Below, piece by piece: positions 8,964 to 20,135 of a stretch of 64,000 nucleotides of DNA. The notes under the pieces were generated by a model. The model did not search any database and was not told where the DNA came from. It was given only the letters and a program-made list of their open reading frames with translations. Each line of letters starts with the position of its first letter. The stretch's first letter is position 1. Source of the DNA: an uncultured Solirubrobacterales bacterium (GTDB taxonomy: Bacteria; Actinomycetota; Thermoleophilia; Solirubrobacterales; Solirubrobacteraceae); NCBI GenBank assembly GCA_963826395.1, contig CAWGWP010000001.1, forward strand, positions 441,768 to 505,767, given 5' to 3'. A program made the translations under genes and the position numbers.

Positions 8964-10140
8964 ATGGCGGGAGAGTTGCGGGTTCCGACAGGGCATGTGT
9001 TCAGGGTCGAGCGGGCGCGCGGGCCTGTCTGGTATTGCAAAGTACCGGCTGCCCGACGGCAGGCAGGTGCAGAAGAAGCTCGGGCCTGCCTGTACCGAGC
9101 GGGGCCGACCGCCCGCTGGCTACTTCACCAAGCGGATTGCCGAGGATTGGCTGAGGTCGGTTCTCGACGAGGCGCGGCGCGGGACGCTCCCGGGGCTCGT
9201 TCGCACCGGGGCGACCTTCGCAGATGCGGCGGCTGAGTACCTGCGCTACGTCGAGCACGATCGCGGCCGCAAGCCGTCGACGCTGAGGGGCTACCGCTCG
9301 GCGATCGGCGTCCATCTCCTGCCCGCCTTCGGCGAGCTGCCCGTCGAGGCGGTGACGACCGAAGTGATCGAGCGCTGGATCGCCGAGTTCGGCGGATCCG
9401 CTCGGACTCGGAACAAGCTGCTGATCCAGCTGCACGGGATCCTCGGGAGGGCGAAGAAGCTCTACGGCCTTCCCGCGAACGCTGCCGCGGAGGTCGAGAA
9501 GTTCCCTGAGCGGCGCAGCGGCGACATCGACGTCTTCTTGCCGGAGGAGGTGTGGGCGCTCGTGCGCGCCGCGGCGTCTGAGCAGGACGCGGCGATCTTT
9601 CTGACTGCGGCCTTCACCGGCCTGCGGATGGGCGAGCTGCTCGCGCTTCGCTGGCGCGACGTCGACTTCGCCGGCCAGACGATCCGGGTGCGCGCCAGCT
9701 ACTACGCCGGGCAGCTGACGACACCGAAGTCGGGCAAGGTCCGGGCGGTGCCGATGGCTCCGGACGTGGCCACCGCGCTCGCGCGGCTCGGCAGCCGGGA
9801 CGACTGGGTCGACGACGACGACCGGGTATTCGTCGGCGAGACCGGTGGCTATCTCGATGGGTCAGCGCTCCGGCGGCGCTACAAGGCCGCCTTGACAGCC
9901 GCGGGACTGCGATCGCTGCGCTTCCACGATCTGCGCCACACGTTCGGGACCCGGATGATCACCAAGGCCGACATCCGCAGGGTGCAGGAATGGATGGGGC
10001 ACGCGGACATCCAGACGACGATGCGTTACCTGCACTACGCCCCGCGCGGGGAGGACGCCAGCCTCGTGGCCGAGGCGTTCGCACTGGCTTCAGGCGATGC
10101 CGCAACAGCCAGGACTACAGGCTGGGGGGCCGCCCAGTGA
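8964..10140 (+). CDS. Tyrosine integrase (single frameshift near 9036)
   Basis: TGLRMGE, TPKSG, FHDLRH, MGHADIQTTMRY catalytic residues; N-terminus MAGELRVPTGHVFRVER in adjacent frame. Confidence 0.93.
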
Positions 10141-15116: not shown

Positions 15117-15510
15117 CCTGGGGCACCAGAAGCCGCGACACGCTTGAAACGGTCCCGCGAGGTGCCTCGTCTGGAACGAAACGAGCGCTCAGCCGACGCC
15201 GACCGCGGCCTCGTCCCGTTGATCGAAACTCAGCAGGCGGGCACCGGGTCCGGGGGCCTTCGACGTGGCGCTTGTTCTGACTGCCGGTCCTAGCCCGTTG
15301 CATTGGTCTGCCGAGCGAGGAGCGAGGCGGCTGCTTTTTGTTCCGATGCAGCAGTTCGACTGGAAATGGTGGGACGTTCATGGGTCAAGAAACAGTGGCT
15401 AGGCCCGTCGCGACGGCGGATACTGGTGAGAGCCCCCGTTGGCGGCGGGGGCTCTCACCCGATTCGAATGGTGATGCGGCCGGGTCGCCTCGGTGTCTAG
15501 CCGGTGAGGA

Positions 15511-16239
15511 TCACTTGGCCGCTAATGAAAGCCCGCTCACCGCCTGCTGTGACGTCGTCACTGGCAGTTGGGGCGGAATGTAGTCGGGGCCGGTTTCAAA
15601 GGGGGCGTGAATCCATCCCAGCTGAACCTCCCCCAGATCAGCGGCGATCCCGAAGTCCGCGTGGGGGACCAGGTAGCCACCCTCGATCGCGTCGTAAAGG
15701 TCCGCGTAGGAAGGCGTAGCGGGGTTGCCCCCCTTGAAGACCTGCCACTCATACTGGGGCGTCGTCGAGTAATACAGGTTGATGCCGTAGGCTTCAGTCG
15801 GACGCCCGATACAGCCGGTACCGCCGGGGCAGGCATCGGCGAGGTACTGGTGATTCACCGTGTTATACAGAGCCACCCGCTGGCCGGCCGCTATTTGCTG
15901 CGTCGCGTAAGTGCCGGGCTGCTTGATGAACTCCCACTGGTAGTTGGGGATGTTTGTGTACGTTAGGTCGACCCCGAAGGTCTGGTGGCCGTAGACGAGC
16001 GACTGAGTCCCCGCGCCTAAGTTATCCTCCCCGTTGTCAGTGGTGTCGACGCCCGCTGGAGAGACTAGTTCGGTCGGGACGTTTGCATACGGTGCGATGT
16101 CGGTAGCGGACGCCCCAGGGTCGTTTTGTTGGACGAGCTGCCAAGTCGTGACGTTGGTAGCGAGCGCGCTGGCGGGTAGGGCGAGCGCGGCGATTGCGGT
16201 GAGCGCGACGAGCACCGCGCGAAGCTTGAGACGGAACAT
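15511..16239 (-). CDS. Secreted hypothetical beta-rich protein
   Basis: AGGAG RBS, signal peptide ending ASALA, internal repeat (FGVDL..P.YQWEF / YGINL..PQYEWQV). Confidence 0.8.
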   Translation of the reverse strand: MFRLKLRAVLVALTAIAALALPASALATNVTTWQLVQQNDPGASATDIAPYANVPTELVSPAGVDTTDNGEDNLGAGTQSLVYGHQTFGVDLTYTNIPNYQWEFIKQPGTYATQQIAAGQRVALYNTVNHQYLADACPGGTGCIGRPTEAYGINLYYSTTPQYEWQVFKGGNPATPSYADLYDAIEGGYLVPHADFGIAADLGEVQLGWIHAPFETGPDYIPPQLPVTTSQQAVSGLSLAAK

Positions 16240-16952
16240 CTTGAACTCCTGTTTTCGGGTCTGCCTGAGACCGCGATCATGCGCGCCCGCGCGGCTGGCC
16301 GCTAGCCACCCTAGGGGTGGTCATTCCTCACCCTTCAACGCGACTGGTTGAGACGTGAGTGAACCCGACTTGCGGACCAGAGCAGCCAGCGGCGACCCAG
16401 GGCCCGGGTGGATCACTCAGTCAACGCCGCAGAGAGATGACGGCATCACTACGTCGACCACGCCGACTCGAGCCACGTACGCCACGGCTTTGCACCGAAA
16501 CCAGCAGCTTCCCGCTGAACAGCGACACAGGTGGTCTGATCGATTAAGAGCAGTGTCAGGAGGGTGGCGGGACTGACGTTGCGGCTCGTACGCAGTCAGC
16601 GGCTTGAAGCTCGACAGTGGCGCGCTGCATCAGGCGGTGTAGTTCGGCTCGGGAAGCTCGAGCTCTCTCTTCCGCGGCATCAGCCTGCGCTCGGCGGTCC
16701 GCAGCAGATCGCTCCCAGCCTGGCGGCTTGTCGCGATGTGTTGGCATCTGACAGAAATCTCGGCCGTCGCGAGGGCAACTTGATGTCAACCCGCGCGCGG
16801 TGGACAGCGGTTTGAGGACCGACGCCCGGAGGTCAGGTTTGACTGCTCCTAATCGATCTAAGCGGAAGTGTCTAACCGGACGACACCCAGCTGCCGAGCG
16901 TCAACCGTCCTAACGCGACCTGCGTCTCGCTTCGAAATGAACTCACCAGTCG

Positions 16953-17621
16953 TTAAGGCGGCATATGTGCGGCTCGCCAGTCGAGCGAGTACACCCGCTC
17001 AGGGCTGGCGAGCCCTTTGAGGCTCAGCGACGTCGTCGGACCGTAATTCCATCGCCCCAGATGCTCGGTGTATTCCTTGGATGCCGCTGATACCAGTACC
17101 TCGCCCCCTCGCGCACTACCAGCTATCCGCGCGGCCAGAACCACCGCCCTGCCGAAAAAGTCCTCCTCGACGCTGAAGATGTTCCCGGTATGCATCCCGA
17201 TACGCACTCGCAGAGATCGAGCGGGATGGCTCGCGTTGAACTGCATCAGGGCATGCTGCAACTCGACCGCGCAGGACAGCGCGGAGCTGGCACTCGCGAA
17301 TACGAGCATGAACCCGTCGCCCTGCGAACTGACGACATCCCCGCCGCACTTAGCGACCACGCCGCGCATGAGCTTGTTATGGGCCAGCATCAATTTGAGC
17401 CAAGCCTCCTCACCGAGTCGCTCCATCAGCTCGGTGGATCCCTCGATGTCGGTGAAGACGATCGTCATCATCCCGTCCGGCGAAGTCTGGTGGCGATAGT
17501 CCGGCAGCGCCGGATCGACCTGCGCGACGATCGCCGCAACCGAAGGCGAGGTCTCCTGGCGTGTCACGGAAAGGCCCGGCACCAGCACCAATTCTTCCGC
17601 AAATCTGGACGGGACGCTCAT
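16953..17621 (-). CDS. Class III adenylate/guanylate cyclase, stand-alone catalytic domain
   Basis: IVFTDIEGST, GDGFMLVF, VRIGMHTG, DFFGRAVVLAARI, LKGL. Confidence 0.88.
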   Translation of the reverse strand: MSVPSRFAEELVLVPGLSVTRQETSPSVAAIVAQVDPALPDYRHQTSPDGMMTIVFTDIEGSTELMERLGEEAWLKLMLAHNKLMRGVVAKCGGDVVSSQGDGFMLVFASASSALSCAVELQHALMQFNASHPARSLRVRIGMHTGNIFSVEEDFFGRAVVLAARIAGSARGGEVLVSAASKEYTEHLGRWNYGPTTSLSLKGLASPERVYSLDWRAAHMPP

Positions 17622-18042: not shown

Positions 18043-18089
18043 GGAGGCGTCCGGTCGCTGCTGCTTCGGTCTTACTGGTCAAGCTTCGC

Positions 18090-18276
18090 TGGTCGGCGGA
18101 TGTCGGGAAGAGCGCCGCTTTGGGCTTGCCCGGTCAGAGGGCCGCTTTTAGACCAGCGCCTTCCCGACGTTCCGTCGAGGTGCCCGTAGAGCGGCAACAG
18201 GAGGTCGCGCCCTTGGAGCGCCATCAGTAAGCAACCGCCAGGGTACCTCGCGCCGACCCGTGTCAACCAGGTCGGA
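18090..18276 (+). ncRNA. Putative IS110 bridge RNA (ends approximate)
   Basis: Stem 18093-18110/18160-18178 enclosing target guides; stem 18177-18185/18241-18249 enclosing donor guides; guides match the reconstructed target and donor. Confidence 0.85.
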
Positions 18277-18293
18277 TGAAGGGAGTGAGGGTG

Positions 18294-19511
18294 ATGAGTG
18301 ACGGGCGGTTCGCTGGGGTCGACTGGGCCAGCGAGGAGCACGCGGTGTGCGTGGTCGACGAGCGGGGGCGGATCCTGGAGGGCAAGCGCTATCGGCACAC
18401 CGAGCCGGGGATCCGGGCGTTGTGCGCCAGGCTGGTGCGCTTGCACGTTGCCCTGGTCGCGCTGGAGCGGCCGGACGGACTGTTGATCGAGCGGCTGCTC
18501 GACGCGGGGTTAGCGGTGGTCGCGGTGCATCCCAACCAGGTCAAGGCGATGCGGCCGCGGTTCAGCGTCGCGGGCGGCAAGTCAGACAGCTTTGACAGCT
18601 TCGTGCTGGCCGAACTGGCGCGGACCGACAGCCATCGCTTCCGGGTGCTGGTGCCCGACTCAGACCAGACCAAAGCGCTGCGCGCGATGACCAGGGCGCG
18701 GGACAGCCTGGTGCGCACACGGGTGGGGTTGGCCAACCAGCTGCGAGACCAGCTCGCGACCTTCTGGCCCGGCGCCAGCAACGTGTTCTGCTCGGTCGAT
18801 ACGCAGATCGCGCTCGCGTTTCTGAAGCGCTACCCCACCCCCCTCGATGCCCGCCGTTTGGGCGAGCAGCGACTCGACGCGTTCCTCAAGCGCAACGGCT
18901 ATCCGGGCCGCAAGCCCGCTCGCGAGCTGCTCACGAAGCTCCGAGCAGGCGCCGACGGACGCGCCGGCGAGCTCGAGATGCAAGCCCGCCGGCAAATCGT
19001 GCTCGCTCTCGTCTCCGCACTTGAGCCGGTCGTCAAGCGGATCAGCGAACTGACGATCGAGATCCGCCGCGCCCTCGAGGCTCACCCCGATTGCGCCACG
19101 TTTCGCTCACTCTTCATCGCACAGGACTCATGGCTGTGCGCCGCAACGATGATCGCCGAGATCGGCGACTGCCGCGAGCGCTACCCCACCTACCGAGCCC
19201 TCGCCGCCGACGGCGGCCAATGCCCCGTCGCCGTCGAGTCCGGCAAAGCCAAACACGCGCAGTTCCGATGGGCGTGTGACCACCGGCTACGACAAGCGTT
19301 CTGCACCCTCGCTGACGCAAGCCGCCGGCACAACCCCTGGGCCGCCGACATCTATGACCGCGCCCGCGCCCGCGGCGCCAGTCACACCCACGCCACGCGC
19401 ATCCTCGGCCGCGCGTGGAGCCAAATCATCTGGCGCCTCTGGCAAGACCACGACACCTACGACCCGCTACAACACACCGCCCTGCAACGCCTCATCGCCG
19501 CCCGAGGTTGA
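18294..19511 (+). CDS. IS110 DEDD recombinase/transposase
   Basis: GVDWAS (D), ALERP (E), KSDSFD (DD), AEIGD, ESGK catalytic Ser; uninterrupted; alternative start 18276. Confidence 0.95.
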   Translation: MSDGRFAGVDWASEEHAVCVVDERGRILEGKRYRHTEPGIRALCARLVRLHVALVALERPDGLLIERLLDAGLAVVAVHPNQVKAMRPRFSVAGGKSDSFDSFVLAELARTDSHRFRVLVPDSDQTKALRAMTRARDSLVRTRVGLANQLRDQLATFWPGASNVFCSVDTQIALAFLKRYPTPLDARRLGEQRLDAFLKRNGYPGRKPARELLTKLRAGADGRAGELEMQARRQIVLALVSALEPVVKRISELTIEIRRALEAHPDCATFRSLFIAQDSWLCAATMIAEIGDCRERYPTYRALAADGGQCPVAVESGKAKHAQFRWACDHRLRQAFCTLADASRRHNPWAADIYDRARARGASHTHATRILGRAWSQIIWRLWQDHDTYDPLQHTALQRLIAARG

Positions 19512-19598
19512 CACAGGGGGTCTAAACGCAGCAGCGTGCGTAACCCTCTGCGCGAGCCGTCGACCAGGTATGGCGCCCCTGCGCCGCTCCGCGCTCGC

Positions 19599-19844
19599 AT
19601 GCGAGAATCTGTGTGTGGCCCCAGCTTCGAAGACGGCAGGCTCTCTGACCCTGAGCTAGCCGGGGTCTACGAGGTCGTCGAGCGTCGCCCAGATGGCTCT
19701 TTGCTCCTGCGACCGGAGCGAGAACGCCTGTCCGACGTGCTCAGCGAGACCGAGGGCGCGGTGTTCAAGGACGATGAGTTCATCGCCCACCTCGAGCGCG
19801 TCGCTGCCACAGAGGACGACTTGCCAGGCGAGAACTCGGCGTAG
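19599..19844 (+). CDS. Putative antitoxin (AbrB-like), start uncertain
   Basis: YEVVERRPDGSLLLRP beta-hairpin, acidic tail; 3 bp before toxin gene. Confidence 0.55.
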   Translation: MRESVCGPSFEDGRLSDPELAGVYEVVERRPDGSLLLRPERERLSDVLSETEGAVFKDDEFIAHLERVAATEDDLPGENSA

Positions 19845-19847
19845 ATA

Positions 19848-20135
19848 GTGCCGACGTTCGAGCGGTTGCCGCGGTTCGACCGCGAGTTCCGCCGTATGCC
19901 TCGCGAGCTACACCGGGCATTCCTCGCGATGTTGCCGCTGTTCATCGCGGCGTTGCGCAGCAGCCCGCCGTCGTTTCAGCCGGCCTTGCGGGTCAAGCGG
20001 GTTCGAGGCACCGACGGTGTGTGGGAGGTCACGTTCGCGCCGGACGGTCGGGCGACGTTCGCGTACAGCGGCGAGGTCCGGCCAGGCGAGGCGCGGCGGC
20101 GCGTCGGGGGCCACCAGGTGCTGAGCGGTCCGTGA
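19848..20135 (+). CDS. RelE/ParE-superfamily toxin
   Basis: F.RLPRFDREF, LRVKRVRGTDGVWEVTFAPDGRATF, RRVGGHQV. Confidence 0.75.
   Translation: MPTFERLPRFDREFRRMPRELHRAFLAMLPLFIAALRSSPPSFQPALRVKRVRGTDGVWEVTFAPDGRATFAYSGEVRPGEARRRVGGHQVLSGP

Follow-up and report, generated by a model that had tools for sequence, protein, structure and literature searches.

An intact IS110-group insertion sequence lies in the window (the whole 64,000-nt stretch of DNA analysed here), where it occupies the centre of a two-armed host site and was likely inserted via RNA guides. The site is likely a crossover site of a cassette system that may be run by a small tyrosine recombinase, and we hold this combined reading to be probable. 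What is new lies in the target, a two-armed site of the host that is occupied at its centre and likely forms the cassette joint of an undescribed system distinct from dif. Since each copy sits in such a likely joint, a well-known kind of element leads here to a host system that is probably new.

Element boundaries and recombinase

Four copies of the element are present in the genome, with DNA 99.4-99.7% identical and identical protein. Sequence common to all four extends only from the left CT core (18071..18072, the first bases that all share) to the right CT core (19522..19523), giving an element of 1,451 bp including one CT core (18071..19521; this and all features below are on the + strand unless otherwise given). 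The ends proposed in the earlier note, 18056 and 19536, reach into the host target by 15 and 13 bases, respectively. The same note described the element as bounded by GGTCT. The shared CT core of this description holds, but the pentamer fails as a general repeat because G rather than T precedes the left CT in two of the four copies; the boundary repeat is therefore CT, with GGTCT occurring at some junctions only. The same comparison rules out a 5-bp duplication of GGTCT.

The recombinase gene (18294..19511; 405 aa, or 411 aa from an ATG at 18276) is an unbroken open reading frame whose product matches Pfam DEDD_Tnp_IS110 and Transposase_20, and NCBIfam NF033542, above cut-off. In a profile of 14 relatives aligned to IS621 and ISCro4, the catalytic residues D10 (18321), E58 (18465), D98 (18585), D101 (18594) and S316 (19239) align with D11, E60, D102, D105 and S241 of IS621, bearing out the earlier description of a recombinase that is intact and not frameshifted. 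The alignment also places approximately 80 extra residues between the domains relative to IS621 and ISCro4. A PDB search with the single recombinase sequence gave no match, and the profile search gave only IS621 and ISCro4. An N-terminal DEDD RuvC domain and a C-terminal Transposase_20 domain with the catalytic serine place the element in the IS110 family, and a 221-nt left end containing the RNA, a 10-nt right end and a 5-bp sub-terminal repeat place it in the IS110 group. Membership of the IS1111 group was rejected, as the RNA is not downstream of the gene and sub-terminal inverted repeats of 7-17 bp are absent. The nearest named relatives (up to 94% protein identity) are mostly from uncultured Solirubrobacterales; the best annotated plasmid matches to the recombinase reach ≤ 46% identity, and a search of Rfam gave no match for the element.

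The left arm of the short sub-terminal inverted repeat (18078..18082) pairs with 19508-19512, and the full 5-bp form is found in 45 relatives, being degenerate in the rest. Its partner arm lies within a TTGACA (19508..19513) that overlaps the stop codon and is the predicted -35 box of a circle-junction promoter. The predicted -10 box (18080..18085), which retains A2 and T6 in the seven variants most often found in relatives, is spaced 17 nt from TTGACA only once the ends are joined by circularisation, and a sigma-70 scan of the linear element found no promoter match. In IS621 a promoter is described as forming at the circle junction (PMC11208160). Among 20 sequencing runs listed by shared words, three had half of the words or more. 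Neither a circle joint nor an empty allele was found in four DNA contig sets, which come from one study, possibly the source, and leave the right junction uncovered.

Several features of relatives were observed in passing. In about 40 of the 107 relatives whose right end was parsed, a GC-rich, strongly folding insert of 128-170 nt lies between the stop codon and the donor arm (seen in L001:2700-2860, L013, L040, L133 and L141). Its core is common to distant clades; it is absent from the window element and has no match in Rfam. Four close relatives (L012, L020, L024 and L077) have bridge RNA deletions or a replaced left end and are likely decayed copies. Distant relatives with 46-49% identity (L066, L067, L069, L071 and L072) have, by eye, an apparent GT core with matching right guides.

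A bridge RNA in the left end

Folding of the left end gives two internal loops flanked by stems (z -2.3; 6 of 200 shuffles equally good), in agreement with the earlier note, whose two stems, four guide strings and two GGTCT pentamers all lie where it had placed them. The predicted fold was 94.6% paired across 19 aligned relatives, nine of its 33 pairs having changed on both sides, and its conservation score exceeded all 500 shuffles (0/500) and all slid controls. Only the inner donor hairpin was less regular, being 74% paired among the 19 relatives, partly from misalignment.

Fold and relatives together delimit a target-binding stem-loop (18099..18172) and a donor-binding stem-loop (18177..18249) of the predicted bridge RNA. 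The target loop holds a left guide of 8 nt plus CT (18117..18126), a right guide of the core plus 5 nt (18145..18151) and a handshake guide, AC (18152..18153), complementary to GT at donor positions -2 and -1. In the donor loop a left guide of 9 nt plus C (18197..18206) matches the 9-nt left donor arm (19513..19521) at eight of nine positions, and a right guide of the core plus 5 nt (18225..18231) is the exact complement of the core and the 5-nt right donor arm that it reads (18073..18077). It is followed by the handshake guide CA (18232..18233), whose C is complementary to the G at target position -1.

For covariation, 168 loci were gathered (79 from genomes, 80 from metagenomes and nine more), and guides were parsed by profile alignment in 146, comprising 64 elements in the guide class of the window element and 82 sister elements whose guides differ. 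In the tree, those members of the window guide class that were entered, 30 in number, formed one clade (support 100). Covariation is unreadable within this clade because its guide is nearly fixed. Among sister pairs, the right target guide matched the flank at +1 to +5 in 57, 55, 55, 54 and 51 of 57 pairs (49, 50, 28, 23 and 23 when shuffled), with no match signal at +6, and the left target guide matched at -1 to -5 in 67, 55, 45, 51 and 35 of 70 pairs (63, 32, 21, 27 and 23 when shuffled), a comparison that overstates significance because sister pairs are related. The left signal was weak at -6 (24 versus 17), marginal at -7 (18 versus 14) and nil beyond, supporting pairing of 5-6 nt next to the core. 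Guide and flank therefore covary across homologs in the sister clades, the check that the earlier note had proposed for its four-guide, CT-core layout of IS621 type, and that layout is upheld.

The earlier note also suggested that the left guides are longer than those of IS621. This is so for the donor arm, which has 9 nt (7 in IS621) throughout and equals its guide in 62 of 65 sisters, with four sequence variants. Its first four bases are invariant, so their pairing is deduced from register. One mismatch in the donor guide occurs in 32 of 42 elements of the window clade, the window element included. A longer left target guide was rejected: 7 nt, the IS621 length, precede the core in 78 of 82 sisters, and covariation ends at -7. 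In the window clade itself 7, 8 and 9 nt precede the core in 9, 38 and 17 members, respectively, via a variable run of T.

Handshake positions were also compensated in nature. Of 107 elements, 98 combine AC in the target loop with GT in the donor, and two (L028 and L073) have TC and GA instead; in the donor loop the handshake C has become G in the two elements (L181 and L190) whose target position -1 is C. As AC follows the donor and not the target across relatives, the exact 8-base match of tttagacc to the target, reported earlier as the right target guide, includes donor-directed bases; its last bases (18152-18153) match the donor among relatives.

The pre-core base is sometimes swapped between junctions. 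Of 59 clade members, 6 have a donor-type T on the left, and of 42, 3 have a G of target type on the right (window positions 18070 and 19521), which suggests repair at the handshake position. The original target of the window copy may have had G before the core, a better fit to the guide.

With two loops, four guides around a dinucleotide core, covariation across homologs and handshake complementarity all found, the window element almost certainly works by a bridge RNA. The mechanism itself is already published for IS621, and the element is one more, clean ortholog. Bridge RNAs are predicted in 85.7% of IS110-group elements, with pairings of 8-14 nt (PMC11208160), and the IS621 account defines the handshake guides and puts the core at target-guide positions 8-9 (PMC11208158).

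The target is the centre of a two-armed site

Each of the four genome copies occupies the 6-bp centre of a two-armed site with an 11-6-11 layout. In the window the insertion splits a site whose 11-bp arms, located by the site matrix, lie at 18057..18067 (left) and 19525..19535 (right). With the insertion taken out, this site reaches a score of 25.8 of 31.4 under a matrix from whose training this genome was left out. The consensus of 48 left and 39 right flanks from the clade is RCTGYYGCWWY, the centre GGGCTA and a mirror arm, symmetric to -14/+12, and such a site holds 27 of 36 clade insertions in its 6-bp centre, its outer arms being beyond the reach of the guide. In leave-one-out scoring 27 of the 36 targets scored at least 11 and nine below 11, and 25 passed on the outer arms alone, figures to be read with a matrix that was trained on IS targets and with related insertions that are not independent. 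Two held-out metagenome insertions scored 19.1 and 17.9. A search of the genus for further held-out targets gave no new complete ones (three were already in training, two had left flanks only and two were unparsed). Confinement of the clade to the dyad centre is well supported, and we regard it as very likely.

Guide matches by themselves do not mark the occupied sites. Free guide-matched sites (≥ 9 of 14 positions) number 665 in the genome, with outer arms in seven; 199 of them lie outside crudely called genes, again with arms in seven, and none of the 192 armless intergenic sites is occupied. Occupied sites have outer arms in four of four cases and guide matches of only 9-11. Among targets of sister elements the dyad was found in only 1 of 50 (L147), with a different centre. 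Reading of the arms, attraction by a bound protein and mere survival in such places are indistinguishable from sequence.

L147 and a second sister element from outside the clade, L130, share the dyad centre GCCGCT and a left guide of 8 nt that includes a T run. L147 lies in the GCCGCT dyad and L130 beside one arm of that dyad type, a possible case of independent retargeting to the same kind of dyad.

The symmetry could also arise from hairpin formation, the target being a DNA stem-loop gate as in ISPpu10, where a target stem-loop raises specificity (10.64898/2026.03.19.712850); the window's own site, with its 9-bp complementary arms, would suit this. Arms of one site pair at 5.36 of 11 positions, however, versus 5.30 between sites (405 of 1,000 shuffles as high), so sequence rather than pairing is conserved and the site is a sequence dyad, not a hairpin. 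The ISPpu10 stem is moreover described as lying 5' of the core (10.64898/2026.03.19.712850), whereas the symmetry here is centred on the core. A hairpin target of this type was rejected for want of arm covariation, and we consider such a gate very improbable.

Empty sites and gene modules

Empty dyads cluster near IS copies (13 in one 20-kb bin versus approximately 0.8 expected; 174 genome-wide) and lie between small accessory genes. In the window, empty two-armed sites were found at 16840..16871 (centre TCGATC, score 24.6), at 16525..16556 (centre GATCGA; a neighbouring dyad, at 16479-16510, is 46 bp distant) and at 15278..15309 (centre TAGCCC, the class that this element targets, in reverse orientation). 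Two candidate cassettes are bounded by sites: a gene for a 242-aa protein without a Pfam match (15511..16239, - strand), between two sites, and an adenylate/guanylate cyclase-domain gene (16953..17588, - strand), flanked by the 16840 site and the site that holds the IS. These candidate modules had no close homologs among 300 relatives; fragments with 65-74% identity occurred in 10 of the 300 genomes.

A few centres recur. GATCGA is the centre of 25 of 105 distinct free sites, the other recurring centres being represented 6, 5 and 3 times, and sites with GATCGA, GGGCTA or GGTCTA centres number 34 in the genome versus 3 in the reversed genome. Ends of pairwise homology are concentrated at the centre's far edge (13 at +3/+4, with IS-occupied sites removed). 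Ends within 6 nt of sites were 22 of 675 versus a random mean of 4.6 and maximum of 12, a count that reduces to about six independent cases and is to be set against displaced-centre controls reaching 14. The clearest single module measures 670 bp, contains one universal-stress-protein gene and is present in the genome as two copies, 92% identical and in opposite orientation. Its homology begins and stops at centres and its flanks are unrelated, so that, as in dif modules, the same module stands in different contexts with homology ending at the centre. For a two-gene module, homologs with good flanking sites were found in only one of five other genomes.

An 11-6-11 dyad with crossover in its centre is the layout of tyrosine-recombinase core sites. 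The dyads are likely to be crossover sites for gene modules, as the recurring centres and the edge breakpoints suggest. The degenerate, symmetric arms would equally suit a dimeric DNA-binding protein, and the dyad could be an operator or a REP-like repeat enriched in genomic islands, with the IS using base-pairing only and surviving in neutral spots. Neighbours at 37, 46-48 and 55-61 bp are compatible with this, REP sequences are a known target of IS110 relatives (PMC11187229; 10.64898/2026.03.19.712850), and sequence comparison does not separate post-insertion selection from targeting. A small set of fixed, asymmetric 6-bp centres, or breakpoints at their edges, would however serve no purpose in an operator, and base-pairing alone leaves the 192 vacant armless sites among the 199 intergenic guide matches to be explained. 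We therefore give an operator or REP-like repeat a low probability and prefer crossover sites.

Other arrangements of sites were noted. Spacings of 37, 46-48, 55-61 and 82-83 bp, roughly one helical turn apart, recur between neighbouring dyads, in the window at 16479-16556 as well as in other clusters; such neighbours may be accessory binding sites. A gene-less module of 60-70 bp between two centres recurs several times. To the right of the insertion (window 19536-20135) are two short adjacent ORFs with no Pfam match, which by size and layout we take to resemble an antitoxin-toxin pair. Two IS copies in direct orientation 6.4 kb apart (L080:11857-19747 = G000 C1 879856-887746) flank several site-bounded modules and have the first nine right-flank bases in common; they are possibly a composite or a rearranged pair.

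Candidate enzymes for the sites

A gene for a tyrosine recombinase of approximately 230 aa, consisting of the catalytic domain PF00589 only, is found in three site clusters and lies 1.4 and 3.0 kb from two IS copies. It is present in 31 of 150 genomes of the family and within 1.5 kb of 3 of 79 related IS loci. In a phylum sample it occurred in four of eight genomes of this family and in 0 of 392 others, matching the occurrence of the clade. ESM Atlas matches of the protein were to generic PF00589 clusters only.

Sites are concentrated around this gene. None of the conclusions depends on genomes G142, G1065, G1070 or G1098. With own-genome loci left out of recombinase and control counts, and L208 (from the unpublished genome G142) also left out, 32 sites were found in 29 independent loci (97 kb), versus 1.0 in shuffles (maximum 5) and 5-7 with other centre lengths. 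Another 35 sites lie beside clade insertions (102 kb) and none beside sister elements (35 kb). At the level of single loci, only 18 of 29 have a site scoring at least 13 and only 6 of 29 a close site on both sides. The control was a 357-aa phage-type integrase (window 9067-10137), the family of which is present in 68 of 150 genomes, at loci free of dyads apart from 2 sites in 28 loci (109 kb).

The small recombinase may be the enzyme of the sites; on its genomic association we call this an even bet. The sites may instead be recombination sites served by the host XerC/XerD or by a nearby full-length integrase, with the small recombinase only cargo. The small protein has PF00589 alone, and its genome copies look broken: two are near-complete with a frameshift and an in-frame TGA, damage that may be assembly error, and the third is partial. 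The gene is absent from the 64,000-nt window, which has sites; integrases of 357 and 404 aa lie 9 kb from two IS copies, and the centre of the genome's dif is the second commonest site centre. Against an integrase of the window's family stand the two sites in 109 kb given above. XerC/XerD fit poorly with a host dif that is a different, asymmetric site with a TTATGT arm, whereas the dyads are symmetric and have no such arm, and neither alternative accounts for a small recombinase confined, within the phylum sample, to this one family in step with the clade. Service by XerC/XerD or a full-length integrase is thus unlikely, and the small recombinase stays our candidate.

The TTATGT-armed dif pattern of the family was found in 32 of 61 genomes searched and was single-copy in 31 of the 32. 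Identity of the dyads with pdif or dif was rejected, the host dif being a separate site with this arm. The likely chromosomal dif is at G000 C7 799521-799538. The commonest dyad centre was also found in the dif of three other genomes. One genome, G035, has six dif-like sites, possibly true dif modules.

Proposed mechanism and its significance

The proposed mechanism starts from the recombinase, the CT cores, the two-loop RNA and the matching, covarying guides, all established from sequence. By analogy with IS621, circle formation would join TTGACA to the -10 box 17 nt away and switch on the bridge RNA. The target loop would then read approximately 5-6 nt to the left and 5 nt to the right of CT and the donor loop 9 nt to the left and 5 nt to the right, with the two handshake dinucleotides pairing crosswise after strand exchange. 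The guide of the clade is frozen on GGG-CT-A, a recurring 11-6-11 centre, and the clade is found almost only in such sites. These would be tyrosine-recombinase core sites of which only equal centres recombine, so that the genes between them would move as modules. The least certain steps are the last, namely that the recombinase of approximately 230 aa beside the sites may be their enzyme and that the IS may prefer the sites because a bound protein, or read-out of the arms, adds to base-pairing.

A fuller version is offered tentatively, at slightly under even probability. Solirubrobacterales would exchange cassettes, as modules of one or two genes and independently of integrons and XerCD, by means of a catalytic-domain-only recombinase. 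Its substrates would be symmetric 11-6-11 sites having several centres that exclude one another. The RNA of the IS110 clade would be locked on one centre and would need the arms or the bound recombinase too, and L147, perhaps with L130, would have been retargeted separately to another centre.

Taken alone, the element is another ortholog, yet its 7-bp right guides and the handshake compensations are natural ones, and its left donor arm has 9 nt. If the sites are as they seem, soil Thermoleophilia possess their own gene-cassette system, and the window clade would be the IS110-group counterpart of the attC-hunting IS1111 elements. The findings bear on what, besides RNA-DNA pairing, selects the targets of bridge recombinases, as hundreds of equally good guide matches are unused versus four of about a dozen armed sites occupied.

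Comparison with known systems

A literature search of the available article texts found no report of this site or of an IS110-group element in it; the clade may be in published tables. Work on 'dif site hunter' insertion sequences is reportedly to be found in papers on the IS1202 family.

As in IS621 and ISCro4/IS622, the element combines a DEDD plus serine active site, a left-end RNA with target and donor loops and a CT core (PMC11208160, PMC11208158, 10.1101/2025.05.14.653916), together with handshake dinucleotides, a short sub-terminal repeat and a promoter, here predicted, at the circle junction. Unlike the recombinases described for IS621 and ISCro4 (about 326 aa), that of the window has 405 aa, the approximately 80 additional residues lying between its domains. 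The left donor arm is of 9 nt versus 7, the right guides are naturally contiguous over 7 bp and the target is the centre of a 28-bp dyad. Whether IS621 exits by cut or copy is described as an open question (10.64898/2026.08.31.748434; 10.1101/2025.10.25.684509).

The IS1111-attC group (ISKpn4, ISPst6) likewise comprises RNA-guided insertion sequences homing to gene-cassette recombination sites, as the sites here are likely to be (PMC11187229). Those elements belong to the IS1111 group, carry the RNA in the right end and long sub-terminal repeats, and hit one end of the folded attC (PMC11187229), whereas the window element is of the IS110 group and hits the centre of a non-hairpin dyad.

Integrons share with the present loci a tyrosine recombinase next to small single-gene modules. 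An integron was nevertheless rejected on both of its components. The small recombinase scored 57 and 50 bits against IntI cut-offs of 265 and 435 (with a query containing approximately 30 wrong-frame N-terminal residues), and an attC would be a structure-conserved hairpin, whereas the arms here do not covary. Unlike integron sites, the dyads have no covarying hairpin, fall into several centre classes and occur in both orientations within a cluster. Integron integrases carry an IntI-specific insertion (PMC8138268).

The pdif/dif modules of Acinetobacter plasmids resemble the present arrangement in having accessory genes between 11-6-11 sites of tyrosine-recombinase type, with a module occurring in different contexts, and the 'dif site hunter' elements resemble the window element in seeking such sites (PMC9455709). 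Unlike pdif sites, the arms here are symmetric and include no XerD arm, the sites lie in chromosomal islands and a dedicated small recombinase is nearby; unlike the dif-site hunters, the IS enters the centre and not the sequence next to the site.

Finally, ISPpu10 and its REP target offer a precedent for an IS110-group element whose targets are conserved beyond the bases read by the guide (10.64898/2026.03.19.712850). In ISPpu10, structure is described as covarying more than sequence, whereas here there is no covariation between the arms, and the symmetry extends across the core.
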